From the NCBI GenBank assembly GCA_035696245.1, contig DASRQW010000273.1, positions 1 through 51,827 on the forward strand: a stretch of DNA of 51,827 nt, written 5' to 3'. Both the position numbers and the translations under genes were made by a program. Positions 10,367-33,418 of this stretch are shown in pieces. The DNA is from Longimicrobiaceae bacterium (GTDB lineage Bacteria; Gemmatimonadota; Gemmatimonadetes; Longimicrobiales; Longimicrobiaceae). Within the stretch, counting starts at the first letter, position 1. Each line of letters starts with the position of its first letter. The notes beneath the pieces are model-generated. The model did no database searches. It saw only the letters and a program-made list of their open reading frames with translations, and had not been told where the DNA came from.

Positions 10367-10377
10367 CTCCGCCCACC

Positions 10378-12851: not shown

Positions 12852-12852
12852 G

Positions 12853-13587: not shown

Positions 13588-13589
13588 CG

Positions 13590-13988
13590 TCACGGGCCGA
13601 TGCGGAGCGGGATGGTGCGCCGCGGGACGACGCGCGTGTCGGCGGCCACGCTTCCATCGCGCCACAGAACCTGAACGTGGACGTCGAACAGGTCCTCCTC
13701 GCCGGGGACCGGACGCGCGGCGATGCGCCACGAGTAACGGTCCAGCGGAGCGTCGAAATGCCCGTCCGCCGTGTCGGCCCAGAGCGCGAACTGCTCGGGC
13801 GGCGCCAGGTCCGTGCGCGCTATGAGCTCGTCGGCGAGCGAGGACGCTTCCTGGACCGAGGCGGCGCGGCGGCTGGCGCGGACGTCCGCCGCGGCCACGC
13901 CCAGCGCGGCGGCCACGAGCATCCCGGCGAGCGCGAGCGCCACCACGGCCTCGATGAGCGTGAAGCCCCGGCGGTCAGCGGCGCGCAA
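13590..13988 (-). CDS. gspI: T2SS minor pseudopilin, GspI-like
   Basis: A TTG at 13988 gives M-RAADRRGFTLIEAVVALALAGMLVAA, a short basic leader followed by the G-F-T-L-I-E prepilin motif; 132 aa. Alternative ATG at 14039. Confidence 0.6.
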   Translation of the reverse strand: MRAADRRGFTLIEAVVALALAGMLVAAALGVAAADVRASRRAASVQEASSLADELIARTDLAPPEQFALWADTADGHFDAPLDRYSWRIAARPVPGEEDLFDVHVQVLWRDGSVAADTRVVPRRTIPLRIGP

Positions 13989-14538
13989 CGTCCACCCTCC
14001 CCGTCCAGGCGTCCACGCGGATCTCGCCCGCCCGCCCATCTCCCGATTCCCACGCCAGCACCGCGGGCGCCGCACCGCCCAGCGGGTCGAAGCGCGCAAC
14101 GAGCACCGCCCGGCCGTCGGCCGAACGGAACCGCGCGGCAGACCAGTCCGCGACCGCACCCTCCATCAGCAGCGAGTCGTCCGCCTCGGCCGTGCGGCGC
14201 GTCGTCTCACTGAAGCGGCCAGTCTCCAGATCGATCCTCAGCGCGACTTCCGACCCGCTCTGCGTCGCTTTGCCGCGCGCCTGGCCGAGCAGGCGCACGA
14301 CGTCGTCCACTGCCCGGTCGGCGCCCGACTTCGGCCGCGGCAGCGCGGGCACGGCGACGGCGAGCGCGATACCCATCACCACGAGCACGACGGCCAGCTC
14401 GATGAGCGTGAAGCCAGGCGGGCGATGCGGGGCATCCGTTGACCACGCTGCCGACGCCCTGGCGAGAGGCCGTGCATCTCCCGAACGAGGTAAACCCGAG
14501 AGGATCGGCTGATGCGTGGCCCGCACGTCAGAAGCCAT
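13975..14538 (-). CDS. gspH: T2SS minor pseudopilin, GspH-like
   Basis: Prepilin motif PGFTLIELAVVLVVMGIALAV. The only in-frame start is ATG 14538, which overlaps the gspF stop by 11 nt and gives a long 41-aa leader. Confidence 0.6.
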   Translation of the reverse strand: MASDVRATHQPILSGLPRSGDARPLARASAAWSTDAPHRPPGFTLIELAVVLVVMGIALAVAVPALPRPKSGADRAVDDVVRLLGQARGKATQSGSEVALRIDLETGRFSETTRRTAEADDSLLMEGAVADWSAARFRSADGRAVLVARFDPLGGAAPAVLAWESGDGRAGEIRVDAWTGRVDVARR

Positions 14539-15733: not shown

Positions 15734-15734
15734 C

Positions 15735-16169
15735 TTACTTCCAGCTCTGCACGTCGGCGTCCTCGCCCTCGCCGCCGGGCCGCCCGTCGCGGCCCAGGCT
15801 CACCACCTCGTATCCCCCATCGCTCTCCGTCCCCGGGCTGCGATACACGTACGGGTTGCCCCAGGGGTCGTTCGGCACGTCCTTGCGCAGGTACGGGCCG
15901 CGCCAGTCGCGCGGGCGCGGCTCGCCCGTGGGCGCGGTGCGCAGGGCGGCCAGCCCCTGCTCGGTGGTGGGATAGACGTCGTTGTCCAGCCGGTACGCGT
16001 CGAGCGCGGCGCCCAGCATCTCCACCTGCGACTTGGCCGTCGTCACCTTCGAGGCGCCGACGTGCCGGAACACGTTGGGCGCCACGAGCGCGGCCAGGGC
16101 GCCCAGGATGATGATGACCACCATGATCTCGATGAGCGTGAAGCCCGCCCGGCGGTTTCGCTGTTCCAT
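15735..16169 (-). CDS. gspG: T2SS major pseudopilin GspG
   Basis: MEQRNRRAGFTLIEIMVVIIILGALAALVAPNVFRHVGASKVTTAKSQVEMLGAALDAYRLDNDVYPTTEQGL...DPWGNPYVY is the canonical GspG sequence; 144 aa. Confidence 0.9.
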   Translation of the reverse strand: MEQRNRRAGFTLIEIMVVIIILGALAALVAPNVFRHVGASKVTTAKSQVEMLGAALDAYRLDNDVYPTTEQGLAALRTAPTGEPRPRDWRGPYLRKDVPNDPWGNPYVYRSPGTESDGGYEVVSLGRDGRPGGEGEDADVQSWK

Positions 16170-16200
16170 GACGCGTGCTGGATGATGAGGGGAGATGCGG

Positions 16201-17634
16201 TCACGCCTGCGCGACCCGCAGCACTTCTTCGGGGGTGGTGACGCCGGCGGCCACCTGCCGCCAGCCGTCGTCGCGCAGCGGCCGCATGCCGCCTTCCACG
16301 GCGGCGCGGCGGATAGACCCCGCGCCCTGGCGGCGCAGCAGCTCGGAGCGCACCGCATCGTCCACGCGAAGCAGCTCGTAGATGCCCGTGCGGCCGCGGT
16401 AGCCGGAGCCGCGGCAGAGCGCGCAGCCCCGCCCGCGGCGGATGCGCGACGCGGGGAAGCCGGCCGCCGCCATCTCCGCCGCGGCCCAGGCGGGCGGCGC
16501 CACCTCTTCCGCGCACTCCGGGCAGACGGTGCGCACCAGGCGCTGGGCGAGCACCCCATCCACCGTGCTGGCCACCAGGTACGGCTCCACGCTCAGGTCC
16601 ACGAGGCGGATCAGCGCGCCAGGGGCGTCGTTGGTGTGCAGGGTGGAGAGGACGAGGTGGCCGGTGAGCGCGGCCTGCACGCAGATCTCCGCCGTCTCGG
16701 CGTCGCGCATCTCGCCCACCAGGATCACGTCCGGGTCCTGGCGCAGGATGGACCGCAGCGCGACGGCGAACGTCACGCCCGCCTTGCGGTTCACGGGCAC
16801 CTGGGCGACGCCGGCCAGCGCGTACTCGACCGGGTCCTCCACCGTGACCACCTTCTCGCGGCCCGTGCGGATCATCTCCAGCGCGGCGTACAGCGTGGTC
16901 GTCTTCCCGCTGCCCGTGGGCCCCGTGGCGAGGATGACCCCGTGCGGGCGCGCCAGCAGCTCGTCGAACTGCTTTCGCGTCGCCGCGTCCATCCCCAGGT
17001 GGGAGAGGTCGTGCTGGCGTCCGCCCTCGTTCTCCAGCAGGCGCAGCACCATGCTCTCGCCGTGCAGCGTGGGCAGCGTGCTGAGGCGCACGTCCACCGC
17101 GCGGCCCTCCACACGGAGGCGGACGCGGCCGTCCTGCGGACGTCTCCGCTCCGCCACGTCCATCTCACCCATCACCTTGAGCCGGCCGATCACGGCGGAC
17201 GCCAGCGCCGGGGGCGGCGACGGCGCGGCGACCAGCACGCCGTCCACGCGGTAGCGGACCTCCAGCCCGCCGCGGCCCGTCTCCAGGTGCACGTCGCTGG
17301 CGCGCGCCTCCAGCGCCTCGCGCAGGATCAGGTTGACCAGGCGGATGACCGGTGCCTCCTGGATCCGCGCCGCCAAGTCTCCCTCCCCGGCATCGTCTCC
17401 CGCGCCGTCGCCCGGCTCGCCGAGCGAGGCGATCAGGTCCGCGGCCGTCTCGTCCGCGCCTTGCTCCAGCCGGGCGAGCGCGTTCGCCAGCTCCTCCGCC
17501 GGGATGCGCTCCACCGTGGGCTCGGCACCAAACGCCCAGCGCAGGTCGTCCATCACCTGCGGGTCCGGCTCCCCCGCCGCCAGCACGCGCACGCACCCCG
17601 CCTCGACGATGGGGATGACGCCCCACTCGACCAT
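16201..17634 (-). CDS. gspE: T2SS ATPase GspE
   Basis: Walker A GPTGSGKTTTLYA, Asp box, Walker B DPDVILVGEMRD, His box LTGHLVLSTLHTN, and a tetracysteine motif CPEC...CALCRGSGYRGRTGIYE. The start was chosen at MVEWGVIPIV; upstream ORF sequence is junk. Confidence 0.9.
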   Translation of the reverse strand: MVEWGVIPIVEAGCVRVLAAGEPDPQVMDDLRWAFGAEPTVERIPAEELANALARLEQGADETAADLIASLGEPGDGAGDDAGEGDLAARIQEAPVIRLVNLILREALEARASDVHLETGRGGLEVRYRVDGVLVAAPSPPPALASAVIGRLKVMGEMDVAERRRPQDGRVRLRVEGRAVDVRLSTLPTLHGESMVLRLLENEGGRQHDLSHLGMDAATRKQFDELLARPHGVILATGPTGSGKTTTLYAALEMIRTGREKVVTVEDPVEYALAGVAQVPVNRKAGVTFAVALRSILRQDPDVILVGEMRDAETAEICVQAALTGHLVLSTLHTNDAPGALIRLVDLSVEPYLVASTVDGVLAQRLVRTVCPECAEEVAPPAWAAAEMAAAGFPASRIRRGRGCALCRGSGYRGRTGIYELLRVDDAVRSELLRRQGAGSIRRAAVEGGMRPLRDDGWRQVAAGVTTPEEVLRVAQA

Positions 17635-18040
17635 GTAGGCAGTGGGCAGGGGAGGGTGCGACGATGCGGACGACACGAAGGTTCGGGAGGCGAGGAGATG
17701 GGGACGCCAGTCCGGCGCGCTGCCAGACGGACGCTGCGAAGTGGACGGCGGTCGCACGGGGAGACCTTCCGCCTGCGGCTCGCACGGCGTGAGGAAAGAC
17801 CGCCAAAGGTATCCAAAGCCGCCGCGGGTGGCAATCGCCGCCCACGCCCACGGCCGCGGTGCTACGCCATGGTACCGCAGCGTGTTAGCACCGCGTGAAC
17901 GGCCTTGCCCACCCCACCCGCGCGAGGACGGCGCCTGCGCGCCGCGGGCTCCCGGAAAACGCGTGGCGCGGGTATTTTCCGACCGACGCCACCGCATTCC
18001 TGCCGGCGGGCTGCTCCCCCCGATCACTGGTCCCACGCGC

Positions 18041-18598
18041 ATGAGAAGAATCCTGGCCGCCCTGCTCCCCCTCGTCCTCTCCGCCTGCGTGCCTCGATAC
18101 CGCGTGGCGGAGTGGCGCGACGACTTCGAGCAGACGGAGACCCGGCAGATGCGCGCCAACGTCCTGGCGGGCGAAGGCACCGGTCACGACTGGCTGGCGC
18201 TGGATGCCGAGTCCTCCCGGACCCGCGGCGACACGGCGCGATACGCGCTGGTGGTCGACTACCGCACCAGCGGCCACCCGCTTCGCGTGCCGGCCGGGGA
18301 GACGCTCGTGTTGCTGGTGGACAGCCAGCGCGTGGCCCTCCGCGGCGCCGGAAGCTCCGGGCACCGCGCCCGGTCGGGCGTGCGCGGCGACCGCGAGCAG
18401 GCGCGGTACCCCGTGTTCCGCACCCTCCTGGAGCGCATCGCCGCCGCGCGGATCGTGCGGGTGCGGCTCGCGGGCCAGCGCTACTACGTCGAGCGTTCCT
18501 TCTCCACTCTCAACCTGCGCCACCTGCGCGAGTTCCTTGCGCCGCCGGCGCCCAAGCCGCCGCGCACCCCCACGCAGGCGACCACCCCGCAGGCGTGA
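18041..18598 (+). CDS. Lipoprotein of unknown function
   Basis: MRRILAALLPLVLSAC carries a lipobox (LSAC). 185 aa with a Pro-rich tail. Divergent from gspE. Confidence 0.7.
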   Translation: MRRILAALLPLVLSACVPRYRVAEWRDDFEQTETRQMRANVLAGEGTGHDWLALDAESSRTRGDTARYALVVDYRTSGHPLRVPAGETLVLLVDSQRVALRGAGSSGHRARSGVRGDREQARYPVFRTLLERIAAARIVRVRLAGQRYYVERSFSTLNLRHLREFLAPPAPKPPRTPTQATTPQA

Positions 18599-21865: not shown

Positions 21866-22321
21866 ATGCGAAAGCTGTACGTGGTGAAGTTGACGGAGTC
21901 CGAGCGTGGCGATCTGCATCGGCTGACACGCCGTGGCAAGGCAGGTGCGCGACAGATCAAGCGGGCGCTGGTGCTTCTGCGGGCCGACGAAGGTGCCACG
22001 GACGAGCAGATCGCCGCCGGAGTTGGCGTGGGCAGCGCAACGGTGGAGCGCATCCGCAAGCGGTTCGTCACCGAAGGGCTGGAGGAAGCGGTGACGGAGA
22101 AGCCTCGCCCGCCACTTCCGCCGAAGCTGGATGGGAAGGGGGAGGCGCTGCTGCTGGCACTGGCTTGCAGCGACGTGCCGGAGGGACATGCGCGCTGGAG
22201 CATGCAGATGCTGGCAGATCGTCTGGTCGCGTTGGGAGCCGTCGACGCCATCTCGGACGAGACGGTGCGGCGGAGTCTCAAAAAAGCAAGACGAAGCCGT
22301 GGCAGCGCCAGCAGTGGCTGA
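21866..22321 (+). CDS. IS630 transposase OrfA (HTH part)
   Basis: MRKLYVVKLTESERGDLHRLTRRGKAGARQIKRALVLLRADEGATDEQIAAGVGVGSATVERIRKRFVTEGLEEAV...ARWSMQMLADRLV... is a typical IS630 N-terminus. Confidence 0.85.
   Translation: MRKLYVVKLTESERGDLHRLTRRGKAGARQIKRALVLLRADEGATDEQIAAGVGVGSATVERIRKRFVTEGLEEAVTEKPRPPLPPKLDGKGEALLLALACSDVPEGHARWSMQMLADRLVALGAVDAISDETVRRSLKKARRSRGSASSG
22280..22286 (+). other. A_AAA_AAG slippery heptamer for -1 frameshifting
   Basis: OrfA reads CTC AAA AAA GCA; OrfB reads TCT CAA AAA AGC AAG ACG AAG CCG TGG, giving the K-x-KPW motif conserved in IS630 fusion transposases. Confidence 0.6.
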
Positions 22322-23244
22322 TCCCGGAGATCACGCCGGAGTTCATCTGGCGCATGGAGGACGTGCTCGACCTCTACGCCGAGGAGAGCGATCCAGAGCG
22401 CCCTCGAGTCTGCTTCGACGAGATGCCGCTGCAACTGGTCTCCGAAGTCCGCACCCCTCTGCCGGCGCGCCCCGGGCAGCCCGAAAGGTACGACTACGAA
22501 TACCGACGCGAAGGCACCTGCAACCTCTTCGTCTTCTTCAGCCCCGACATCGCCTGGCGAGAGGTCAAGGTCACCGACCGGCGCACTGGGGTCGACTTCG
22601 CCGAATGCATGCGGGACCTGGTGGACGTGCACTTCCCCAAGGCCGAGACAATCCGGGTGGTGCTCGACAACCTGAATACGCACACACCGGCCTCACTCTA
22701 CCAGGCGTTCTCGCCTGGGGAGGCGCGGCGAATTGTGAAGCGGCTGGAGTTCCACTACACCCCCAAACACGCGAGCTGGCTGAACATGGCTGAGATCGAG
22801 TTCTCCGTGCTGGGAGGCCAGTGTCTGGACCGTCGCCTGCCGACCCAACACAAGGTCCGCGTCGAGACGGCTGCGTGGTGCCGGGCACGCAACGAGAGCC
22901 GGGCCACCATTCGTTGGCAATTCACGACCGCCAACGCCAGAGAGAGGTTCTCGTCCCGATATCCATCGCCTCGGCCGTGGCGAGCCACTAGGCGCGTGTC
23001 GCCGCCCTGGACGGCAACCCCGCGCTGTAGGCAACGCCTCGGACCGAGCTACGAAAGCACCTCCGCGGCTTCGGGCGCGGAGGTGCTTTTGTTTTACGGT
23101 TGCCTCCGTTCGGTGGCGGGCGGCGGAAGCGATTGTGGTGCACGCCCCGTTAGACGGCAGATGCAGCATGACCTCTGCTTCGTTAATGGACGTCGACGGG
23201 CATCGATTCTCCTCTGTCGATCGTCCCCGCACGGGCCAGCCTAA
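22280..23244 (+). CDS. IS630 transposase OrfB (DDE part) entered by -1 frameshift; no stop inside the element
   Basis: ...KTKPWQRQQWLIPE...VCFDEMPLQL...NLFVFFSPDIAWR...VVLDNLNTHTP...HYTPKHASWLNMAEIEFSVL...IRWQFTTANARERFSSRYPS. Homology ends near 22975, but the frame stays open across the right IS end to 23244. Confidence 0.75.
23056..23095 (+). terminator. Canonical rho-independent terminator
   Basis: AGCACCTCCGCG (23056-67) / CGCGGAGGTGCT (23076-87) form a 12-bp perfect stem with an 8-nt loop, followed by TTTGTTTT. Confidence 0.7.
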
Positions 23245-24309: not shown

Positions 24310-25278
24310 ATGCACAGCCCCGACCCCACCGTCACGGCGAACATCTACAGCGCACGCCACCTGGACGAGATCGTCCGCGGCGTGGTCGTGCCGCTCCGGC
24401 ATGGCCTGGCCGAGCGGGGCATGGCGGACCGGTGGTCGCTCTGGACCATGCGCTACCTGCGCCGCGGTCCGCATCTCAAGCTGAGGCTGCACGGGCCCGA
24501 GCAGGAGGCGGGCGCCGTCCGCGAGCTCTTGGAGGAAGCGGCGGAGGCCCACTTCGCCTCGCTGTCGCCGGAGGGCGACGGCCCCATGAAGCACTCCAAG
24601 GCACCCGCCGGCGCGGTGGACCTGGAGGACGAGGGCGAAGGCGAGCGCCCGGACCGCACGCTGCTGTGGACGACGTACCGCCGCAGCGCCGTCTCGTTCG
24701 GCCCAGACACCCAGCTGTTGGCGGACGACCGCTACGTCTCCCTCTTCACCGCCTGCCTGGCTGCCGCGGGCGAGATCGCCGTCACCGCCATCGAGCCGGA
24801 GATCTCCGAGGCGGGGCGGCTCAAGGCCCTGCGCGGCGGCCTGGCTGCCGGCGTCTCCGGCCTGCCTCTGACAGAAACCGAGCGCGACCTCTACCTCGAG
24901 TACCACCGCGACTGGCTGCTCCGCTGGATGATGCCCCACGCCGAGCGCGACGCCGAGATGCTGGCGAAGTTCGACCTGCGGGCGGACGCGAGCGGCGCCG
25001 CGGCGGCGGAGATCCGGCGCATCGCGAGCGAGGGCCCGGCGGTCGGCGCCTTCGCCCGATGGCGCGACGCGCTGGCGGAGCTGGCGGCGTACGTCGCCCG
25101 GTTCCGCGGCGACCCCGCGCACCACGTGGACCCCTTCACGGCCGACCCCGTCTTCCCCGCCCTGTTCAAGGTCTTCCACTCGCTCGCCAACCAGCTCGGC
25201 GTGGACATGCTGAACGAGTCCATGCTGCACCACATCGTGCTGCGCGCGCTGGCCGGCGCCGCGGTGGCGGGAGCGTAG
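24310..25278 (+). CDS. Stand-alone SpaB_C / thiopeptide-type bacteriocin biosynthesis domain protein, paralogue 1 (322 aa)
   Basis: ...ANIYSARHLDEIVRGVVVPLRHGLAERGMADRWSLWTMRYLRRGPHLKLRLHGP... matches the N-terminal signature of LanB C-terminal (elimination) domains (hhhRY..GPHhRhRh). An alternative TTG start is at 24244. Confidence 0.8.
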   Translation: MHSPDPTVTANIYSARHLDEIVRGVVVPLRHGLAERGMADRWSLWTMRYLRRGPHLKLRLHGPEQEAGAVRELLEEAAEAHFASLSPEGDGPMKHSKAPAGAVDLEDEGEGERPDRTLLWTTYRRSAVSFGPDTQLLADDRYVSLFTACLAAAGEIAVTAIEPEISEAGRLKALRGGLAAGVSGLPLTETERDLYLEYHRDWLLRWMMPHAERDAEMLAKFDLRADASGAAAAEIRRIASEGPAVGAFARWRDALAELAAYVARFRGDPAHHVDPFTADPVFPALFKVFHSLANQLGVDMLNESMLHHIVLRALAGAAVAGA

Positions 25279-25281
25279 CGC

Positions 25282-28044
25282 TTGCCGCGTACCGCACGCA
25301 ACCGCGCGCCCGTGATCGGGCGCTTCGGCGGGCTGCCCGCGGAGACGGTGGAGGCGTTCTCCACCGCCCTCTGCGGCGCCGCGGACGCGCTGGCTGCGCT
25401 CGAGTCGGAGCTGGCCGGGTGCCGCGAGGCGCTGGCCGACCGGCTGCACGACGCGGTGCCGGGCGCCGCGCTGGAGCTGCGCCGGCTGCTGCTGGCGGTG
25501 CGCCGCGACTGCCATAACGGGCGCGGCATCGCCCGGCACCGGCGCTCGCCGCAGTGGCCGCTGGTGGCGGACGCGGCGGGTTCGCTCGCCGGGCAGGTGG
25601 GCGAGCTGGAAGACCGCGTGGCGGATGCCTGGGCCGCGTTCCGCAGCGACTACGAAGCGGAGCGCGACCGCCAGAGGGGCGCCCTGCGCGAGCCGCTGCG
25701 GGACCGCGCGTTCATGCGCGGCCTCGCCCTGGCGAGCCCCGACCTGTACGACGCCTGCCGGCAGCTCGCCGCCTCGCCCACCGTCGCGCGGAAGGATGCG
25801 AAGAGCGAGGCGGCCCTGCTCCGCTACGTGGTGCGCGCGGCGCTCAAGACCTCGCCGTTCTCCACCTTCACGCCCGTGTCGGTGGGCGCGGCGGATGGAG
25901 ATGCGGGCGCGGCCGGCCTCCGCATCGCCGGCGGGGAGACGGAGCCGCGGTCGCTGGTGCGGCTCAAGCGCTTCCGCCTGGGCCAGCTCAGCGACGCGCT
26001 CTGTAGGTACGCTCCCTTCCGCGACGGCCTGCGCGTGGTGTTGAACGACTCGGCCGAGGACACGGAGCCGGGGCGCGCACTGCTGCTGCGGCCGGGCTGC
26101 TGGGAGGGAGCGGCCGACCGCGGCACGCTGCGCTACCGCGCCGATGCGCTGGTCCGCGTGGGCATCGCCGCCCCGCTCGTCCGGCGCGCCATGGAGCTCC
26201 TGGCCGAGGGCCGCCACACGTTCGGCGAGCTGGTGGCGCGAATCGAGGGCGAAGGCGCACCGGAAGATGCCGCATCCGCCCCGAGCCAGCTGGAACGGCT
26301 GGCGGAGCTGGGGATGCTGCGGCTGGTGCTGCCGTGGCCGTCGCAGGCCGGGCACCTGGAGGCGCGGATGTGCGACGCCCTCCGCGCGCTTCCGTACGAC
26401 GCCGCGCTGGAGCCGTTCATCTCCCGGCTGGAGCGGCTGGTGGCGCTGGAGGAGGGCTACGCGCAGGCATCCGACCCCGCCGCGTCGCTCCGCGAGATGC
26501 GGCGCCTGGTGGACGAGCTGTGGGGTGCGGCCGCGGCGCTGGGCGGCCGGTCCTTCGCCGGCACCGCCTACCGCGGCACCGCGCGCTACGACCTGTACGA
26601 GGACGTCCTGCTCGTGCCCGGCGGGGCGGAGACCGCGCCGGCCTTCCACCTCTCCGGCGACGCCGCCCGCCGCGCGCTGCGAAGCGCCGAGCCGCTGGCG
26701 GACCTCGCCGCGCTCTGCGACGACCGGCAGGACTTCCGCGCCGCCCTCGCCGCCTTCGCGGCGGAGACGTGGCCGGGACGCGGCGAGGTGGGCGTGCTGG
26801 AGCTGTTCTCGGCCGCGCAGCCGCTGTGGCAGGCGTACCTGGCGTTCCGCGCCGCGGGTTTCCAGGAACGCGACCCCGGACGGACGTGGAACCCGCGCGG
26901 CCTGCCGGAGGTGGAGACGCTCCGGGCCTGCCGCGCCATGGTGATGGACCGCCTGGCGGGGTGCGTGGAGACGCTGCCGGACGGCGACGCGTGCGTGGAC
27001 GAGGACCGGCTGCGGTCGCTGATCGGCGCGGTGCCGTCCGGCCTCACGGACGGCGGCGGCGGCGGGGCGTGCCTCTTTCTCCAGCCCGCCAGCCGCGACG
27101 GCTCGCTCTGGCGGCTGAACGCGGTGCGCGAGGGCACCGGCCGCTGCGGGAGCCGCTACACCCCCGCCATGCCCGCCGCGCTCCGCCGGGAGTACGCCGC
27201 GCACCTCCGCGCCCGCGGCACCGTCACCGTGGACGGCGAGCGGGCGGAGCTGCTGGACCTGTTCGCGGTGCAGGGCGACACGCTGAACGTGCACGCGCCC
27301 CAGACCCCCGCCGTGCTCGCCTTCCCCGGCGAGCGGACGGGGGTAGCGCCGCACCGCCGCGTGCCGCTGGGCGACCTGCGCGTGTGCTTCGACGGTCCCG
27401 CCGGGCGCATCGCGCTGCGCGGTGTGGACGGGCGGAGGTTCGTGCCGGTCCACCTGGGTCTTGCGTACGAGGCGTACATGCCGCCGGTGGTGCGCTTCCT
27501 CATGGCGCTGGGGCCCAGCGAGCGCGGCTCCATCCTTCCGCCCGCTCCCGAGCGCGCGGAAGGGGAGGTGCGGATTCGCGCGCGCACGACGCTGGGCAAC
27601 CTGGTCGTCCACCGCCGCGCGTGGTCCGTCCCCGCCGCCCCGCTCGCCGCCGCGCTGGCCGCGACCGACGACGCACGCGCTTTCGCCGACGCCAACCGGC
27701 TCCGTGCCGGGTGGGGCATCCCGGAGCGCGCCTTCGTCCGCGAGGCCATGACGCACCCCCTGGCCGGCACCGTCCGCAAGCCCCGCTACGTGGACTTCAC
27801 GTCGCCGCTCTTCCTTTCCGTGCTGCGCGAGCTGGCGGCCACGGGCGAGGAGCGCATCACCGTCGAAGAGATGCTTCCCGACCCCGCGATGCTCCCGCGC
27901 GACGCCGCGGGGCGGAGCCGGGCCGTGGAAGTCTTGGTCGACTCGCTGGCCCTGCGCCGGCGCACGCAACGCGCGGAGGCCGCTCCGCTCCGCCGTACCC
28001 GCGCCCGCACTGGGCGCACCCCCGCCGGCACCGCCGCCGGGTGA
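25282..28044 (+). CDS. Stand-alone LanB-type dehydratase N-terminal (glutamylation) protein (920 aa)
   Basis: The TTG start lies 4 nt after the upstream stop. VIGRFGGLPAETV...LRRLLLAVRRDCHNGR...FMRGLALASPDLYDA...EAALLRYVVRAALKTSPFSTFTPVSVG... follows the conserved LanB N-domain pattern (L.RY..R...R.TPFG.F). The size fits split-LanB glutamylation proteins. There is no C-terminal elimination domain. Confidence 0.85.
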   Translation: MPRTARNRAPVIGRFGGLPAETVEAFSTALCGAADALAALESELAGCREALADRLHDAVPGAALELRRLLLAVRRDCHNGRGIARHRRSPQWPLVADAAGSLAGQVGELEDRVADAWAAFRSDYEAERDRQRGALREPLRDRAFMRGLALASPDLYDACRQLAASPTVARKDAKSEAALLRYVVRAALKTSPFSTFTPVSVGAADGDAGAAGLRIAGGETEPRSLVRLKRFRLGQLSDALCRYAPFRDGLRVVLNDSAEDTEPGRALLLRPGCWEGAADRGTLRYRADALVRVGIAAPLVRRAMELLAEGRHTFGELVARIEGEGAPEDAASAPSQLERLAELGMLRLVLPWPSQAGHLEARMCDALRALPYDAALEPFISRLERLVALEEGYAQASDPAASLREMRRLVDELWGAAAALGGRSFAGTAYRGTARYDLYEDVLLVPGGAETAPAFHLSGDAARRALRSAEPLADLAALCDDRQDFRAALAAFAAETWPGRGEVGVLELFSAAQPLWQAYLAFRAAGFQERDPGRTWNPRGLPEVETLRACRAMVMDRLAGCVETLPDGDACVDEDRLRSLIGAVPSGLTDGGGGGACLFLQPASRDGSLWRLNAVREGTGRCGSRYTPAMPAALRREYAAHLRARGTVTVDGERAELLDLFAVQGDTLNVHAPQTPAVLAFPGERTGVAPHRRVPLGDLRVCFDGPAGRIALRGVDGRRFVPVHLGLAYEAYMPPVVRFLMALGPSERGSILPPAPERAEGEVRIRARTTLGNLVVHRRAWSVPAAPLAAALAATDDARAFADANRLRAGWGIPERAFVREAMTHPLAGTVRKPRYVDFTSPLFLSVLRELAATGEERITVEEMLPDPAMLPRDAAGRSRAVEVLVDSLALRRRTQRAEAAPLRRTRARTGRTPAGTAAG

Positions 28045-28094
28045 TCCATCCCGGGCCGTCCGGCCCGGGCCACAACCCCTCCAGGAGGCACACC

Positions 28095-28214
28095 ATGGCT
28101 CAGGACACCAACCAGCAGGACGCCGAGATCCAGCCCCTCTCGGACGAGTCGCTCGAGGAAGTCGCCGGCGGCGTCTGCTCGTGGAGCGGCTGCTCGAACA
28201 GCGCCTCGCTGTAA
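28095..28214 (+). CDS. Precursor peptide P1 (39 aa)
   Basis: AGGAGG lies 6 nt upstream. MAQDTNQQDAEIQPLSDESLEEVAGG|VCSWSGCSNSASL. Confidence 0.85.
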   Translation: MAQDTNQQDAEIQPLSDESLEEVAGGVCSWSGCSNSASL

Positions 28215-28278
28215 GCTCGCACAACGTCTCCAGGCCGGCACCGGCCCGGAACACCCCCTCACCACATGGAGGCACACC

Positions 28279-28392
28279 ATGGCTCAGGACACCAACCAGC
28301 AGGACGCCGACATCCAGCCCCTCTCGGATGAGTCGCTCGAGGAAGTCGCCGGCGGCCTCTGCTCGTGGAGCGGCTGCTCGAACAGCGCCTGA
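28279..28392 (+). CDS. Precursor peptide P2 (37 aa)
   Basis: GGAGG SD. MAQDTNQQDADIQPLSDESLEEVAGG|LCSWSGCSNSA. Confidence 0.85.
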   Translation: MAQDTNQQDADIQPLSDESLEEVAGGLCSWSGCSNSA

Positions 28393-28454
28393 TCTTCGAC
28401 CCCGCCGGGCCGCCCCGGCCCGGACCCCTGAACACCCACTCAAGGAGGCACATC

Positions 28455-28589
28455 ATGGCTCAGGATCCCAACCAGCAGGACGACATCCAGCCCCTCTCGG
28501 ATGAGTCGCTCGAGGAAGTCGCCGGCGGCGTCTGCTCGTGGAGCGGCTGCTCGAACGGCGCCAGCGCGCCCGCACCTACGGTCGACTAA
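28455..28589 (+). CDS. Precursor peptide P3 (44 aa)
   Basis: AGGAGG SD. MAQDPNQQDDIQPLSDESLEEVAGG|VCSWSGCSNGASAPAPTVD. Confidence 0.85.
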   Translation: MAQDPNQQDDIQPLSDESLEEVAGGVCSWSGCSNGASAPAPTVD

Positions 28590-28598
28590 GAGGACGGC

Positions 28599-28712
28599 AA
28601 GGCTCAGCATCTCGACCAGCACGCCGCCGGCATCCAGTCCCTCCCTGACGAGTCGCTGGAGGAAGTGGCCGGCGGAGTGTGCTGGTGGAGCTGCTGCCCG
28701 AACAGCGACTGA
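28599..28712 (+). pseudogene. Decayed precursor copy psi-P4 (start codon ATG changed to AAG; both invariant Ser lost)
   Basis: AAG GCT CAG CAT... aligns with ATG GCT CAG GAT... of its neighbours. It would read KAQHLDQHAAGIQSLPDESLEEVAGG|VCWWSCCPNSD. No alternative start is available and the SD is degraded (AAGAGGAC). Confidence 0.7.
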
Positions 28713-28772
28713 TCTCGTTCCACCGTCCGGGCCCCGACGGCGCGGACCACACTCCAACTGAAGAGGCACACC

Positions 28773-28907
28773 ATGGCACAGGATCCCAACCAGCAGGACG
28801 ACATCCAGCCGCTCTCGGACGAGTCGCTGGAGGAAGTGGCGGGGGGCATCTGCTCGGTCAGCAGCTGCTCGAACACCACCACCAGCACGAAGCCTTCGGG
28901 CAGCTAG
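28773..28907 (+). CDS. Precursor peptide P5 (44 aa)
   Basis: AGAGG SD. MAQDPNQQDDIQPLSDESLEEVAGG|ICSVSSCSNTTTSTKPSGS. Confidence 0.85.
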   Translation: MAQDPNQQDDIQPLSDESLEEVAGGICSVSSCSNTTTSTKPSGS

Positions 28908-28917
28908 GAGGCACACC

Positions 28918-29040
28918 ATGGCCCAAGATCCCAACCAGCAGGATGACATCCAGCCGCTCTCGGACGAATCGCTCGAGGAAGTGGCCGGCGGCATCTGCTC
29001 GTGGAGCGGGTGCTCGAACTCCTCGATCGTGCAGAAGTAG
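28918..29040 (+). CDS. Precursor peptide P6 (40 aa)
   Basis: AGGAGG SD overlapping the P5 stop. MAQDPNQQDDIQPLSDESLEEVAGG|ICSWSGCSNSSIVQK. Confidence 0.85.
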   Translation: MAQDPNQQDDIQPLSDESLEEVAGGICSWSGCSNSSIVQK

Positions 29041-29051
29041 TATCGACCGTG

Positions 29052-29077
29052 CGAGGGGGGGCGGCCTGCCCCCCTCG
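29052..29077 (+). terminator. Strong G/C hairpin closing the first precursor block (attenuator or mRNA-stabilising stem; no T tract)
   Basis: CGAGGGGGG (29052-60) / CCCCCCTCG (29069-77), 8-nt loop, 12 nt after the P6 stop. Confidence 0.45.
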
Positions 29078-29146
29078 CCCGGCACCCCGGCTTTCCTCCA
29101 ACCACGCGGAACCGTGACGCAGACAGCCTCGCCCGAAGCCGCCGCC

Positions 29147-29806
29147 ATGCCCTGGTTCGACCTCGTCTCGCTGTCGGGCGACGAGGGGCGGCGCTGGCGC
29201 GAGCAGTACGGGCGCTTCGACAGCGTGGCGAAGGGGATCATGGGCTCGGTGCCGCTCCTGCGCCGGGGCGAGATCGACACCGGCGCCCGCATGCTGAAGG
29301 ACGCGCGCGAGCAGCTCTCGGCCATGGACGTCGGCGACGAATCGATCCTCTCGGTGATGGAGCGCTGGTACCTGGGCGCGCTGGGGATGTACCACTACCG
29401 CCTCGCCGAGTTCGACGAGGCCGACCGCGTGATGGCGCGTGCCCACGAGCACATGGTGGACGCGGTCACCCGGCGCGGCTTCCTGGTTGTGCTGGCCGAC
29501 GAGGCGGTGGAGCTGCGGCTGCACCGCGCGCGCATCTCGCGCAACCGCCAGCGCTGGGCGGAGATGTGGGACCACATCTCCGCCGCGCGGGCCATGCGGG
29601 CGGGCGGCGAGCCGTTCTACGTGCTGCGCGACGGCAGGAGCGTGTGGCTCTCGGACGTGCGCGAGTTCCTGGAAGCGCTTCCCGCGGCGCCGGAGCAGCG
29701 GCCGGTGAAGCCGAACCTCCAGGATCCCACGCAGTGCCGCCAGGACATAGACCGCTGGATTCGCGACGTGCTGCGCATCCCTGACTCGGTCATCCACGCG
29801 CCCTGA
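29147..29806 (+). CDS. 219-aa protein of unknown function embedded between the two precursor blocks
   Basis: MPWFDLVSLSGDEGRRWREQYGRFDSVAKGIMGSVPLLRRGEIDTGARMLKDAREQL...; predicted all-helical and soluble. No LanC, protease or transporter motifs. An alternative GTG start is at 29114. Confidence 0.7.
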   Translation: MPWFDLVSLSGDEGRRWREQYGRFDSVAKGIMGSVPLLRRGEIDTGARMLKDAREQLSAMDVGDESILSVMERWYLGALGMYHYRLAEFDEADRVMARAHEHMVDAVTRRGFLVVLADEAVELRLHRARISRNRQRWAEMWDHISAARAMRAGGEPFYVLRDGRSVWLSDVREFLEALPAAPEQRPVKPNLQDPTQCRQDIDRWIRDVLRIPDSVIHAP

Positions 29807-29882
29807 TCCCGCACGCGCGCTCGCCCGGACGCCGGGCTCGCTTCCAAGCGGCGACTGGACCACCTTCCATCGAAAGCACGCC

Positions 29883-30017
29883 ATGAATCCCCAGGACCAG
29901 CAGGCCGAGCAGGCGATGGACGACGTGGAGGTCGAGCCGCTCCACGACGACGCGCTGGAGCAGGTCGCGGGCGGCAACATGTGCTCGCTCACCATGTGCT
30001 CGAACGTGTCGGTGTAG
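29883..30017 (+). CDS. Precursor peptide P7 (44 aa)
   Basis: MNPQDQQAEQAMDDVEVEPLHDDALEQVAGG|NMCSLTMCSNVSV. Weak SD. Confidence 0.75.
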   Translation: MNPQDQQAEQAMDDVEVEPLHDDALEQVAGGNMCSLTMCSNVSV

Positions 30018-30089
30018 GCTGCGAACCCGCGCGTCCCTGCCGGACATCCGCCGCGGACGTGGAAACAGCTCACGAAGAGCCGGAAGATC

Positions 30090-30218
30090 ATGTCGAAGCA
30101 AGCGCAGATGGAGCAGCAGCCGGACGAAGTGCTGGTGGACGCGATCACCGACGAGTCGCTGGAGGAGGTCGCGGGCGGCATCTGCTCGATGGTCAACTGC
30201 TCGAACGTCCCGGACTGA
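30090..30218 (+). CDS. Precursor peptide P8 (42 aa)
   Basis: MSKQAQMEQQPDEVLVDAITDESLEEVAGG|ICSMVNCSNVPD. Confidence 0.75.
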   Translation: MSKQAQMEQQPDEVLVDAITDESLEEVAGGICSMVNCSNVPD

Positions 30219-30351
30219 CCGCCGCGATCGGCCCGAGTCCTCGCGGGGCGGGCGATGCGGCCGGCCGTCGATCCCCGCTCAGAATCCACGGCCGCGCAGG
30301 CGACGCCGCCCGGACGCGGACAGGTTCAACCTTGCAGCGAAGGAGGTCGTG

Positions 30352-30477
30352 ATGCCGCCGGAAGAACAGCGCAGCGACGCGTTGGAGGATGCGGAGATCG
30401 AGCCGCTCCACGAAGAAGCGCTCGAAGAGGTGGCGAAGGGGCCCTGTTCCCTGACCTACTGCTCCAACCAGGGCTGA
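30352..30477 (+). CDS. Precursor peptide P9 (41 aa; KG instead of GG)
   Basis: AGGAGG lies 5 nt upstream. MPPEEQRSDALEDAEIEPLHEEALEEVAKG|PCSLTYCSNQG. Confidence 0.75.
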   Translation: MPPEEQRSDALEDAEIEPLHEEALEEVAKGPCSLTYCSNQG

Positions 30478-30603
30478 CCGGTCCGGTGGACGTCACCCGC
30501 CCTTCGATGATCGGACGCGTGCGGTCCATAGCGATTCGGTCCACACCGCGCCGGTTTATACCACCGGCGCGAACCGTTTCCACTCGCAACGAGGCAGGCT
30601 CCA

Positions 30604-30732
30604 GTGCCCCAGAACGACGAACAGCGCTCGGACGCGGTGAACGAGGCGGAGGTCGAGCCGCTCCAGGACGACGCGCTCGAAGAGGTGGCAGGCGGAATGT
30701 GCTCCTGGGCCTACTGCTCGGCGCAGGTGTAG
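30604..30732 (+). CDS. Precursor peptide P10 (42 aa, GTG start)
   Basis: GAGG lies 9 nt before the GTG. (M)PQNDEQRSDAVNEAEVEPLQDDALEEVAGG|MCSWAYCSAQV. No in-frame ATG is available. Confidence 0.7.
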   Translation: MPQNDEQRSDAVNEAEVEPLQDDALEEVAGGMCSWAYCSAQV

Positions 30733-30868
30733 CCGGCCCGATGGGCACGACGCCGCGCCGTCGGATGGTGGCGCGCCGCGCTCCGTGCATCTTCTCGCCG
30801 TCACCGAAATGCTGTGGCTCGCGGGCAGACGCACGCGGGCAGACAATCTCACGGGAGGCAAGACGATC

Positions 30869-31003
30869 ATGTCCCAGGATCCACAGGTGGAGCAGGGCGT
30901 CGCGGACGCCGAGATCGAGCCGCTTCACGACGCGGCGCTGGAAGAGGTCGCCGGTGGCAACGGCTGCTCGATGGCCTACTGCTCGTACGTCGAGCCGGCG
31001 TAG
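30869..31003 (+). CDS. Precursor peptide P11 (44 aa)
   Basis: GGGAGG SD. MSQDPQVEQGVADAEIEPLHDAALEEVAGG|NGCSMAYCSYVEPA. Confidence 0.75.
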   Translation: MSQDPQVEQGVADAEIEPLHDAALEEVAGGNGCSMAYCSYVEPA

Positions 31004-31104
31004 GCCGCGGCCACCGAGCACATCTCGACAGGCCGCACGCCGGCGGCTCCACCGCACGACGAGCCCGGCGCACGGCCGGGAAAACCCACACCGAGGTGAC
31101 CGCC

Positions 31105-31236
31105 ATGTCGCAGGACATGCAGGCCCAGCAGGCGATCGAAGCGGCGGACGTCGAGCCACTCGCTGACGAGTCGCTGGAGGAGGTCGCGGGCGGCATCTGC
31201 TCCCTCACCGCCTGCTCCAACAGCAAGGAGCTGTGA
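31105..31236 (+). CDS. Precursor peptide P12 (43 aa)
   Basis: GAGGTG SD. MSQDMQAQQAIEAADVEPLADESLEEVAGG|ICSLTACSNSKEL. Confidence 0.75.
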   Translation: MSQDMQAQQAIEAADVEPLADESLEEVAGGICSLTACSNSKEL

Positions 31237-31242
31237 CGCTCC

Positions 31243-31275
31243 CGGCACTCCCGGCGTCCGACACCGGGAGTGCCG
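31243..31275 (+). terminator. 12-bp perfect hairpin after the last precursor gene (attenuator-like; no T tract)
   Basis: CGGCACTCCCGG (31243-54) / CCGGGAGTGCCG (31264-75), 9-nt loop, 7 nt after the P12 stop. Confidence 0.5.
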
Positions 31276-31384
31276 CCTCGTGAAGCTCCGGCATGCCACC
31301 GGCTGGGGAAGCGCGCGCGCCCGGAAGCGTGCGATCCCGGCTCACGGCAGCTCGTCCGCGCCGCCCACCACGCACCCTCGCACC

Positions 31385-32296
31385 ATGAAGCATCTCGCTC
31401 TCAACGTCTACCTTCGCGGTCGCGCGGCGCAGGATCGGCTGCTGGCCGAGTGCGTCGGCCCGGCGGTGGAGGAGATGCGGGGCAGCGGCCTCGTCCGCCG
31501 CTTCTGGTTCCAGCCGTTCGACGCGCGCGGCCCGCACGTCGGCGTCGTCCTCGGCGTCGCGGACGACGCGGCGGATGAGGTACGGGCGGAGTTTTCGGCG
31601 CGCCTGGAAGCCTTCCTCGCCACGCATCCCTCCACCGAGCCGCTGAGCGACGAGGAGGTGGCGCGGCGTCACGCCGAGTGCCGCGGCAAGCGGCTCTGCT
31701 CGATCGACGCGGAACCGGGCATCGCCGCGCCCGGCACCTTCGCGTTCGCGGAAGAGGCCGCCCCGCGCTACCCCTTCGGCCCGATGCCGCAGCCCGGGGC
31801 GGACGACCGGGCGGGGGAGATGATGTGCGGCCTGGCGCTGTGGAGCATCGGCCATCTGCGCGCCGGCACGGGCTCGCGCGCGGCCGTGCGATGGGCGGCA
31901 TCCGTGGACCTGGCTCTTCGCGAGAGCGGCGAGGCGGCGGACGACTACTGGCGCCGCCACGCGTCCACTCTGCTCGTGGGGCTGGACGAACGGTACGATG
32001 CCGACCCGGAGGCGATCGTCTCGCGCTTGCGCGAGCTGGTCGGCGACCGCAACCGCGACGCGTTTGCGCGGGCGTGGGCGGAGGTCGAAGCCGACGGGCC
32101 GCCGTGGTCTTCCGCGACCGAGCTCGTGGAGCACGCGCTCCGCGAGGGCGCCCAGTCGCCGCACGGACGATGGGGAGTGCTGCGGGAGGTGAACCACTGC
32201 GTGCTGCTCCAGCTCGGGCAGATGGTGCGGCTGCACGTGCCGCTGGTGCTGTACGCGTGGCTGCGCGGCTCGCCCGTCGCCGCGGTGGCTTCGTGA
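31385..32296 (+). CDS. Stand-alone SpaB_C / TIGR03891-type protein, paralogue 2 (303 aa)
   Basis: MKHLALNVYLRGRAAQDRLLAECVGPAVEEMRGSGLVRRFWFQPFDARGPHVGVVLG... has the same N-terminal architecture as the other two, but the RY..GPH.R.R signature is degenerate (FQPFDARGPHVGVV). Confidence 0.75.
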   Translation: MKHLALNVYLRGRAAQDRLLAECVGPAVEEMRGSGLVRRFWFQPFDARGPHVGVVLGVADDAADEVRAEFSARLEAFLATHPSTEPLSDEEVARRHAECRGKRLCSIDAEPGIAAPGTFAFAEEAAPRYPFGPMPQPGADDRAGEMMCGLALWSIGHLRAGTGSRAAVRWAASVDLALRESGEAADDYWRRHASTLLVGLDERYDADPEAIVSRLRELVGDRNRDAFARAWAEVEADGPPWSSATELVEHALREGAQSPHGRWGVLREVNHCVLLQLGQMVRLHVPLVLYAWLRGSPVAAVAS

Positions 32297-33351
32297 GCGT
32301 AGCGGCGCCGCCGGACGCGGGCCTCGGCTGGCGAGCGTATCACCTCGTCTGCCACGGCGACCGCGACCGGCTCCTCGCGGAGATGGTGCGCCCGCTCGCC
32401 GCGTCGCTGCTGCGCGATGGGGCGATCTCGCGCTTCTTCTTCATCCGCTACGCCGTGGGCGGGCCGCACGTCCGCTTCCGCGTGCTGCCCTGCCCCGGCC
32501 GCGAGCGGGAGGCGAACGAGCGCATCCACGCGGCGGCGTCGGAGTTCTTCGCGCGCCACCCATCCCCCGCCCCGCTGGCGCCGGAGACGATCCGCGAGCG
32601 CAACCGCGGCGTCGCCGCCTCCGATCCCGGCGAGGCGGAGATGGCGGACCTCGTGCTGCCCGGCGACAGCGTCGTCGAGAGCCCGGTGAAGCTCGAGACG
32701 GAGCGGTACGGCGGCCCGGAGCGCCTGGCGGATTCCGTCGCGCTCTTCACCCTCTCCAGCATCGACGCGCTGGCGTGGCTAAACGAAGGCGAGCCCACCG
32801 CCGCGCGCCGTCTGACGGAAGCTTCGCGTTCCCTCCTCCGCCACGCGTGGAGCTTCGCGGCGGACCCGGCCGAGATGGTGCGGCTGATCGGCTGGGCGGC
32901 GGGTGGCGCGGCGGGCCCGCTGGAGCGCTTCGTGAGCGAGGGCGACGCGGCGTTCGACCGGCGTCCGGAGCCACTCATCGCCCGTGTGCGTGGTGAGATG
33001 GAGGCGCTCTCCGGCATCGCCGCATCGACGGAGATCCCGATGCGCTGGGCGGAGGGGCCGCGGGTTCTCGGCGCCACGCTTCGCGACGCGCCGGCAGACG
33101 TGCGGCTGCGCATCGCGTCCAGCCACGCGCACATGAGCGCGAACCGCCTGGGCATCACCGTCGCGGAGGAGGTCTACGTCTCCCGCATGCTCTGGCGCGC
33201 CGCCCGTGCCCTGGCTGACGCGGAGCCGGCGTTCTGGCGCGACGCTGCGGAACGCCTCGCATCTCCCGAACCGCCGGACGCGTCGCTGGACGACCTCGTC
33301 CGCATCTCCCTGCAACGGTTCACGGGGGATGTGATCGCATCCACCCGTTAA
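32293..33351 (+). CDS. Stand-alone SpaB_C / TIGR03891-type protein, paralogue 3 (352 aa)
   Basis: The GTG start overlaps the upstream TGA (GTGA). ...WRAYHLVCHGDRDRLLAEMVRPLAASLLRDGAISRFFFIRYAVGGPHVRFRVLPCPG...SEFFARHPSP... is the closest of the three to the canonical LanB elimination-domain signature. Confidence 0.85.
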   Translation: MSVAAPPDAGLGWRAYHLVCHGDRDRLLAEMVRPLAASLLRDGAISRFFFIRYAVGGPHVRFRVLPCPGREREANERIHAAASEFFARHPSPAPLAPETIRERNRGVAASDPGEAEMADLVLPGDSVVESPVKLETERYGGPERLADSVALFTLSSIDALAWLNEGEPTAARRLTEASRSLLRHAWSFAADPAEMVRLIGWAAGGAAGPLERFVSEGDAAFDRRPEPLIARVRGEMEALSGIAASTEIPMRWAEGPRVLGATLRDAPADVRLRIASSHAHMSANRLGITVAEEVYVSRMLWRAARALADAEPAFWRDAAERLASPEPPDASLDDLVRISLQRFTGDVIASTR

Positions 33352-33380: not shown

Positions 33381-33418
33381 AACGGCCCCGCACCAGCCAC
33401 CTCGCTGATGCGGGGCCG
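33381..33418 (+). terminator. Hairpin ending the RiPP operon
   Basis: ACGGCCCCGCA (33381-91) / TGCGGGGCCGT (33408-18), an 11-bp perfect stem 30 nt after the stop. Weak T content afterwards. A 330-bp lower-GC spacer follows before the NRPS gene. Confidence 0.5.

Follow-up and report, generated by a model that had tools for sequence, protein, structure and literature searches.

A LanB-dependent peptide locus with three stand-alone SpaB_C proteins and a C-S-x3-C-S core motif in a Longimicrobiaceae genome and its relatives

The window analyzed here is a whole stretch of 51,827 nucleotides (51.8 kb) from contig DASRQW010000273.1 of a Longimicrobiaceae bacterium. It contains a block of genes that forms one operon-like biosynthetic locus of an uncharacterised LanB-dependent family of peptides that are made by ribosomes and modified after translation (RiPPs). 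The genes are all on the plus strand, in the order C1, N, precursor block 1, U, precursor block 2, C2, and C3 (Table 1). We found no account of this family in literature searches on the motif, the architecture, and the phyla; it is apparently an undescribed, conserved variant among LanB-dependent RiPP pathways, present in Gemmatimonadota and Acidobacteriota of soil. The model that we favor, with a chance just short of even, is dehydration of the serines in the precursor core followed by a cyclization that depends on C2 and U and is independent of LanC. Our evidence consists of gene content, conservation, residue patterns, folds, and co-occurrence, from which we infer each chemical step.

Precursor peptides and related loci

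The genes of the block were defined by a six-frame listing of open reading frames (ORFs), screening of G+C content at third codon positions (GC3), and Pfam and NCBIfam searches. Every gene named in the earlier note on this DNA was found in its place on the plus strand, and its assignment of four proteins to the LanB_N/SpaB_C families was borne out (PF04738 on N; PF14028 on C1, C2, and C3). The note had also counted six precursors on each side of U. The second block does encode six (P7 to P12); the first has five intact genes (P1 to P3, P5, and P6) and one decayed copy, P4. In P4, the ATG is mutated to AAG, the ribosome-binding site (RBS) is weakened, and both motif serines are gone from the core, and it still matches the hidden Markov model (HMM) of the leader (E = 9e-7). 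This pseudogene is a sign of ongoing birth and death within the tandem precursor array.

The precursors combine a leader of the double-glycine type (...IEPLSDESLEEVAGG) with a short core built on C-S-x3-C-S(-N). This motif was present in 11 of the 11 intact cores, mostly with Asn next, in the overall pattern ...EEVAGG(x0-2)-C-S-x3-C-S; only P9 departs from the EEVAGG leader end (AKG). Each intact core has two Cys and at least two Ser. A tail N-T-T-[IV]-V-[IV]-K-P recurs after the motif in three related loci (L067:9840-10467, L007:3746-3985, and L053:12694-12909), and P5 of the window carries a T-T-T-S-T-K-P version of it; this tail may be a second site of recognition or modification.

For N, we found 35 close homologues (41-59% identity), all metagenomic, of which the named ones belong to Longimicrobium. 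A Streptomyces host, which the G+C content might have suggested, was rejected, as every named homologue comes from Longimicrobium or Acidobacteriota MAGs. About 60 further loci (handles L002, L003, and so on) came to light when genome and metagenome collections were scanned and contigs looked up; they are in Longimicrobiaceae, Thermoanaerobaculia, Terriglobia, Holophagales, other Acidobacteriota, and one Polyangiaceae metagenome-assembled genome (MAG). Most of them are from Longimicrobiaceae and Acidobacteriota MAGs. The ORFs of all related loci were classified with seed and family HMMs.

What recurs is the cassette [LanC]-C1-N-precursors-U-C2-C3, with C-S-x3-C-S as the shared core motif; in about 17 related loci, the gene directly upstream of C1 is LanC. 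A reduced variant, LanC-N-C3(-JmjC), has no C1, U, or C2, and a minimal one, C1-N-precursor-U-C2 (L002 and L068), has no C3 within 10 kb. In a further layout, the order is U-C1-(U)-C2-N-C3-JmjC-MacB-LanM. This last arrangement, with JmjC_2, was observed in L005, L017, L018, L025, and L027 (for example, L005:8151-22392), L018 having no U; in those with detected precursors, the cores have the sequence C-S-V-W-C-C-S/T. In many Acidobacteriota loci, tight linkage connects the JmjC/cupin hydroxylase with N-C3.

The presence of C2 tracks the motif. C[ST]-x3-C[ST] was found in 15 of the 17 non-redundant loci that had both C2 and detected precursors, the other two having a 5-residue spacer, and loci with only N and C3 had ordinary Ser/Thr...Cys cores. 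Thr takes the place of a motif Ser in L017, L033, and L048.

The number of cysteines in turn follows LanC. In five loci, the retrieved flanks held neither LanC nor LanM: the window, L002, L067, and L068, all from the window's own subclade, and the unrelated L029. All 20 cores of these loci have exactly two Cys. The 26 cores of 13 loci with LanC or LanM have three to five, typically as C-C-S-C-S-x-C-S after a Ser/Thr-rich stretch. Because two-Cys cores go with the loci that have no LanC and cores of three to five Cys with LanC/LanM loci, LanC seems to play no part in processing the C-S-x3-C-S unit, and on these sequences it seems dispensable for two-Cys cores. LanC is absent across the window subclade (the window, L002, L067, L068, and L069) and from L029. 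Since the upstream neighbors differ among the LanC-less loci and none of them holds a LanC remnant, this absence is a property of the subclade and not local damage by the insertion sequence IS630.

Searches of the whole window with phmmer and seed sequences gave no match for LanC, LanM, C39, HlyD, OEP, or MacB, and tblastn of the 51.8 kb found no LanC remnant. The lack of a cyclase, protease, and transporter noted at the first reading therefore extends over the whole window, but it is not a trait of the family: LanC and exporter genes lie near the cassette in most relatives. Genes for peptidase-containing ATP-binding cassette (ABC) transporters (PCATs, C39-ABC), with HlyD/OEP partners, are adjacent to the cassette or within about 4 kb of it in eight loci and contiguous with C3 in L035; other loci have MacB-type exporters. 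Relatives with LanC have up to about 20 Ser/Thr-rich core residues on the N-terminal side of the motif. Retention of the leader is supported by these stretches, by the GG-type leader, and by the nearby PCAT genes.

Glutamylation, elimination, and candidate cyclase proteins

Searches of the PDB with single sequences of C1, C2, and C3 gave nothing useful, and only family profiles worked. The profile of the N family matched TbtB (6EC7; E = 1e-59) and a goadsporin protein (9JHQ; E = 1e-31), and neither NisB nor MibB at E < 0.01. Because of this pattern, N is classed by sequence as a dehydratase of the thiopeptide/goadsporin split-LanB lineage.

The eliminase that had been predicted among the three SpaB_C paralogues is C3. 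It scored 89.6 bits with TIGR03891, above the cutoff, and its profile matched TbtD, MadB, MibB, and NisB. The motifs R-x-R, E-x-x-R-Y-G-G, and H-M-x-x-N-R were invariant across 25 homologues and align to segments of MibB, NisB, and MadB, where they correspond to R784/R786, E823/R826, and H961 of NisB. In that enzyme, R784 and R786 bind the glutamate carboxylate, R826 together with E823 activates the alpha-proton, and H961 is the base (PMC9486935). With all lyase motifs kept, C3 is, as far as residues can tell, a canonical anti-glutamate lyase.

C1 had been left without a role. Its score with TIGR03891 was 24 bits, under the cutoff, and its profile detected no solved relative by sequence, whereas hhalign related it to the C3 family with 99% probability. 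The Tyr and the His are retained (F-H-G-x-A-N-Q-L-G), K-x-R replaces R-x-R, and Ser stands at the equivalents of E823 and R826. Closely coupled to N in the window, C1 is in most related loci the gene immediately upstream of it; C1 is also the sole candidate lyase in L002 and L068, which have C1 and C2 and no C3. From these features, C1 is probably a second, divergent, and non-canonical glutamate lyase that partners N.

The signature of C2 is degenerate, as first read: its PF14028 match is confined to about 80 N-terminal residues. NCBIfam gave a single match, NF045556 (TbtD_PbtD_pyrid), which covers just the N-terminal 84 residues and scores 47.5 bits (cutoff, 325). Against the PDB, the C2 profile found PbtD and TbtD alone, over up to 183 residues. 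An AlphaFold2 (AF2) model (pLDDT 90.9) was compared with solved structures by Foldseek, and TbtD and PbtD came first (E = 6e-8 to 1.5e-6; TM 0.52-0.65), with TsrL and the elimination domains of MadB, MibB, and NisB lower (E = 4.5e-4 to 5e-3). By profile and by predicted fold, C2 is nearest to these two thiopeptide pyridine synthases. R-x-R and E-x-x-R, the glutamate-binding arginines, are gone from C2 and the His alone is retained; at the position of TbtD Y319, a rough and weak alignment showed no Tyr. C2 is unlikely to be a lyase, since the Arg pair that binds the glutamate carboxylate is lost, and it is our candidate for the class-defining cyclase. Its family is discrete; in a set of 1.84 billion representatives, 143 clusters (50% identity) reached E <= 1e-30.

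Syn-glutamyl lyases such as SptBb and CoiSA(ED) have Lys in place of the Tyr of anti-lyases, no catalytic His, and a hydrophobic residue at the R826 position (PMC9486935). We rejected this assignment for C1, which retains Tyr and His and has Ser at R826, and for C2, which has Phe at the Tyr position, keeps the His, and has lost the Arg pair.

U had no Pfam or NCBIfam match. Its AF2 model (pLDDT 94) is all alpha-helical and was closest in Foldseek to peptide-binding tetratricopeptide repeat (TPR) domains, none at E <= 1e-3; searches with its profile and model returned weak TPR-like similarities and no functional lead. U is found together with C1 and C2 in related loci, and the model suggests that it is probably a family-specific peptide-binding partner or scaffold for C1/C2. 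Some loci have two or three copies of U, in tandem (L014:12741-15215, L016:13591-15018) or flanking C1 (L025:6285-8901, L027:6360-8922).

Proposed chemistry and competing explanations

In the proposed route, N, TbtB-like and dependent on glutamyl-tRNA, would glutamylate the Ser of each Cys-Ser pair and perhaps other Ser/Thr residues. Glutamate elimination would then yield dehydroalanine (Dha), through C3 as the canonical lyase and probably through C1 as a divergent one, which would suffice alone in the minimal loci. C2 and U would join the two halves of the motif without LanC. For this step, we slightly prefer two thioethers that consume the two Cys and the two Dha while the leader stays on, such as Dha2-Cys6 together with Cys1-Dha7; the alternative would be a pyritide-like six-membered N-heterocycle between the two Dha, giving a 14-membered ring. 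Finally, a C39-peptidase ABC transporter would cleave the leader behind GG and export the product; its gene would have to lie in another part of this genome, whereas several relatives have one beside the cassette.

The thioether reading, which is slightly favored, accounts for the invariant residues, the tolerance of Thr, the retention of the leader, and the rule that connects LanC with Cys count. LanC-independent thioethers had been among the products first suggested, and they stay a candidate with LanC seemingly dispensable for two-Cys cores. The most far-reaching reading is wider than this and makes C2, together with U and perhaps C1, a new functional branch of the SpaB_C/aza-cyclase fold. 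This branch would install a LanC-independent cross-link on the motif, either a nested or adjacent thioether pair made by a non-LanC cyclase or a non-aromatized aza-[4+2] ring in a peptide that retains its leader. We give this wider reading a probability of about 0.4. Walker et al. (2020) considered that stand-alone elimination-domain homologues of class I clusters might do something besides elimination.

Several points weigh against a C2- and U-dependent cross-link. C2 scores far under the TbtD/PbtD equivalog cutoff, and in the rough alignment it apparently has no Tyr at TbtD Y319, the residue needed for aromatization. Thia-Michael addition is, to our knowledge, not known for any SpaB_C-fold enzyme. 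Dha and Cys are able to cyclize spontaneously, and C2 and U might therefore serve in site-specific elimination, leader binding, or chaperoning instead. The correlation with Cys count amounts to about two independent events, since a single subclade accounts for four of the five loci without LanC. A LanC or PCAT gene may lie elsewhere in the genome, as the window spans 52 kb and IS630 occupies the region where relatives have LanC. The glutamylation assigned to N is a prediction from homology, and N may instead perform amino-acid ligation of the peptide aminoacyl-tRNA ligase (PEARL) type.

By enzyme homology, the pyritides (MroA/B/C/D of Micromonospora rosaria; PMC9247985) are among the closest described systems, and a pyritide-like product was the other one suggested at first. 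Under this explanation, N with C3 and/or C1 would make two Dha, and C2 would convert them by aza-[4+2] into a trisubstituted pyridine within a 14-membered macrocycle. The leader, including the first Cys, would be ejected as a carboxamide, and the Cys would be a recognition element for the TbtB-like dehydratase, a relic of thiazole-Ser. Gene content agrees with it in part: both systems have a split LanB, a stand-alone eliminase, a SpaB_C paralogue near the pyridine synthases, and no YcaO, and N, C3, and C2 parallel TbtB/TbtC/TbtD as well as MroB/MroC/MroD. N is closest to TbtB, and C2 to TbtD/PbtD by profile and fold. The two Ser at i/i+5 have the spacing of Ser1/Ser6 of MroA1, the precursor of pyritide A1, whose 14-membered ring is the smallest made by MroD (PMC9247985). 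LanC, too, seems dispensable.

The precursors, however, fit this explanation poorly, and we regard a pyridine product as rather unlikely. With respect to what defines pyritides, the block has the split dehydratase pair (N and C3) and a Ser spacing for a ring of at least 14 members, but its precursors are of another type. The leader is double-glycine and not LDLD-type, an invariant Cys precedes each motif Ser, and the cores have variable tails after C-S-N in place of the C-terminal S-W-[LV]-[IV] (MroB and MroD recognize W-[LV]-[IV]); none of the 13 catalogued pyritide precursors resembles them in leader or core. A double-Gly leader in combination with PCAT exporters implies a peptide that still carries its leader when exported. 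In relatives with LanC, leader ejection would also remove the Ser/Thr-rich residues before the motif, and with them the Cys required by LanC. A pyridine does not require the invariance of both Cys, and Thr replaces a motif Ser in the three loci named above. The apparent absence of Tyr at Y319 (a weak alignment) and the low NF045556 score also speak against it. Further differences are the two extra conserved proteins C1 and U, the LanC and PCAT or MacB genes of many relatives, and the hosts (Gemmatimonadota/Acidobacteriota and not Actinomycetota).

Thiopeptides raise the same question from the side of the enzymes. TbtB is the best solved relative of N, and TbtD (thiomuracin) and PbtD (GE2270) are those of C2; the CCSCSxCS cores of the relatives also resemble Cys/Ser-rich thiopeptide cores. 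The cores here are much shorter, though, the leader is of the GG type, and the azole enzymes were not seen. No YcaO was found among the ORFs of the block (24.3-33.4 kb), all of which are assigned, although the window was not scanned with a model specific to YcaO, and none occurs among the called genes with precomputed Pfam matches around L002, L003, L005, L067, and L068. Nor did we see an azoline dehydrogenase or an Ocin-ThiF-like partner, whether in the block or among the genes called in the relatives that were surveyed.

A non-aromatizing aza-[4+2] reaction would bring the resemblance of C2 to aza-cyclases into line with leader retention and PCAT export. C2 would then make a (dehydro)piperidine-type ring, as in thiopeptides of series a/b, and the N-terminal peptide would stay attached until the later cut at GG. 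The apparent absence of the aromatization Tyr would fit, as would the presence of TsrL among the fold matches of C2. Yet the azole context is absent, the invariance of the Cys is left unexplained, and the inference on the Tyr comes from a weak alignment. Taken on its own, this variant is very improbable.

The remaining explanation is that the block is an ordinary split-LanB class I lanthipeptide locus without its cyclase, in which C1 and C2 are extra or site-specific lyases or non-catalytic leader-binding paralogues of the coi/Lph kind. The product of the family would then be a lanthipeptide whose rings LanC makes. LanC would have been lost or displaced by an IS630 rearrangement and would be supplied from elsewhere, or the rings would close spontaneously. 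The block has a LanB domain, lyase residues, and cores with Ser/Thr and Cys, as class I lanthipeptide clusters do, but no LanC. The position of LanC directly upstream of C1 in about 17 relatives and the IS630 transposase 1-2.4 kb upstream of C1 are in keeping with such a loss, and several lyase residues are kept in C1. There are also precedents among the coi or "lanthiphage" (LphB-C-D-E-F) clusters, which have an extra PF14028 protein and a TPR-like protein; extra PF14028 proteins of class I clusters are known as syn glutamate lyases (SptBb, CoiSA(ED)), and CoiH forms a sulfoxide.

The block shares with the coi/lanthiphage clusters LanB chemistry, additional SpaB_C paralogues, a helical protein of initially unknown function, and, in most relatives of the window, LanC. 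Their layout differs, being a full-length LanB with LanC, PF14028 (often fused to PCMT), and LphF/CoiH. In the window, the LanB is split and TbtB-type, no PCMT methyltransferase or LanC is present, the core motif is another one, and LanC is dispensable in the subclade. U was considered as a possible homologue of CoiH, but it is shorter (219-250 aa against >332 aa). The syn-lyase signature (Lys for Tyr, no His) is in neither C1 nor C2, and C2 without the Arg pair for the glutamate carboxylate is an unlikely lyase. Moreover, the absence of LanC is subclade-wide and extends to L029, with differing upstream neighbors and no remnants, which is not what a local insertion accident would give, and it coincides exactly with two-Cys cores. 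We consider this explanation as a whole unlikely, slightly more so than a pyridine product.

Pinensins and goadsporin (GodF/GodG) likewise have glutamylation and elimination on separate polypeptides, and the goadsporin glutamylation protein is the second-best solved relative of N. These systems have a single eliminase with LanC (pinensin) or azole enzymes (goadsporin), and neither the C1-U-C2 module nor C-S-x3-C-S. The earlier note had found no textbook layout that matched the locus; the locus lacks a defining trait of each known system, as described above, but with about 60 related loci it is not singular.

If C2 and U do cyclize the motif, anti and syn elimination and pyridine synthesis would be joined by a third or fourth activity of the elimination-domain fold, in a compact leader-directed system (minimal set C1, N, U, and C2) for a very small ring of 5-7 residues. 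Should the cross-link be LanC-independent, it would also mark out a new class of RiPPs, one that is widespread among uncultured Gemmatimonadota and Acidobacteriota of soil and that is combined with LanC rings in relatives. The locus opens a RiPP family from almost uncultured phyla (Longimicrobiaceae, Thermoanaerobaculia), and loci with and without LanC and with and without C3 are a natural experiment on the recombination of thiopeptide-type and lanthipeptide-type machineries. Its 11 core variants in one operon, with three freely variable ring positions, are attractive for peptide-library engineering.

Operon signals and genomic surroundings

The two tight junctions described earlier differ in detail. 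The stop codon of C2 overlaps the start of C3 (GTGA), as described; between the stop of C1 and the TTG start of N, the gap is 3 nt (TAG-cgc-TTG) and not 4. Hairpins follow both precursor blocks and the last gene, in agreement with the first reading. A T-tract is absent at all three of these GC-rich hairpins and none was called by the terminator scan; the sigma-70/terminator scan gave no useful signal in the GC-rich DNA of the block.

Table 1. Features of the biosynthetic block and of its surroundings in the 51.8-kb window
Feature	Coordinates	Strand	Remarks
C1, divergent stand-alone SpaB_C (Lant_dehydr_C) protein, 322 aa	24310-25278	+	PF14028, E = 5.7e-13
N, split-LanB glutamylation-type protein, 920 aa	25282-28044	+	PF04738, E = 4e-23
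Precursor P1, leader ...PLSDESLEEVAGG, core VCSWSGCSNSASL	28095-28214	+	GGAGG RBS upstream
Precursor P2, core LCSWSGCSNSA	28279-28392	+	
Precursor P3, core VCSWSGCSNGASAPAPTVD	28455-28589	+	
P4, decayed precursor copy (pseudogene), core CWWSCCPNSD	28590-28712	+	no start codon
Precursor P5, core ICSVSSCSNTTTSTKPSGS	28773-28907	+	
Precursor P6, core ICSWSGCSNSSIVQK	28918-29040	+	
GC-rich hairpin after P6 (first precursor block)	29047-29082	+	inverted repeat, 14-nt arms, 93% complementary
U, all-helical TPR-like protein, 219 aa	29147-29806	+	AF2 model; no Pfam/NCBIfam match
Precursor P7, core NMCSLTMCSNVSV	29883-30017	+	
Precursor P8, core ICSMVNCSNVPD	30090-30218	+	
Precursor P9, core PCSLTYCSNQG	30349-30477	+	leader end AKG
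Precursor P10, core MCSWAYCSAQV	30604-30732	+	
Precursor P11, core NGCSMAYCSYVEPA	30869-31003	+	
Precursor P12, core ICSLTACSNSKEL	31105-31236	+	
GC-rich hairpin after P12 (second precursor block)	31243-31275	+	inverted repeat, 16-nt arms, 94% complementary
C2, pyridine-synthase-like SpaB_C paralogue, 303 aa	31385-32296	+	PF14028, E = 6e-8
C3, stand-alone glutamate-elimination protein, canonical by sequence, 352 aa	32293-33351	+	PF14028, E = 1e-32
Hairpin after C3, before the NRPS gene	33384-33417	+	read from sequence: GGCCCCGCA...TGCGGGGCC
Giant non-ribosomal peptide synthetase (NRPS) ORF, >6,000 aa	33683-51825	+	repeated C-A-T modules; continues past window end
IS630-type transposase pieces	HTH_32 21866-22318; DDE_3 22420-23241	+	different frames
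Type II secretion operon	7522-18183	-	secretin GspD, GspK, GspF, GspE ATPase
Second IS630-type fragment	6861-7364	-	HTH only
RHS-repeat ORF	1460-5119	-	

Between the IS630 pieces (21866-23241) and C1 lies an unrelated gene, and the window also contains a 257-aa ORF without a family match. The NRPS gene starts 330 bp beyond C3. The block and the NRPS as one hybrid cluster (compare PEARL-NRPS) were considered and rejected on account of this gap, the intervening hairpin, and relatives without NRPS. The NRPS is probably an independent cluster, being set off from C3 by the hairpin and missing from every related locus.

Two kinds of neighbors were observed beside the cassette in relatives. In L002:14626-18192 and L068:12072-17634, a 104-aa NHLP/Nif11-like peptide ending in ...LDVVLGG|S(A/S)FPPA... 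and then genes for OEP, HlyD, and C39-ABC directly follow C2; this peptide may be exported by the same transporter as a second substrate. In several loci, a radical-SAM enzyme with its own short, Cys-containing GG-leader peptide adjoins the cassette (for example, L003:16515-21386 and L005:5079-6738, both on the minus strand), and it appears to be a separate RiPP system.

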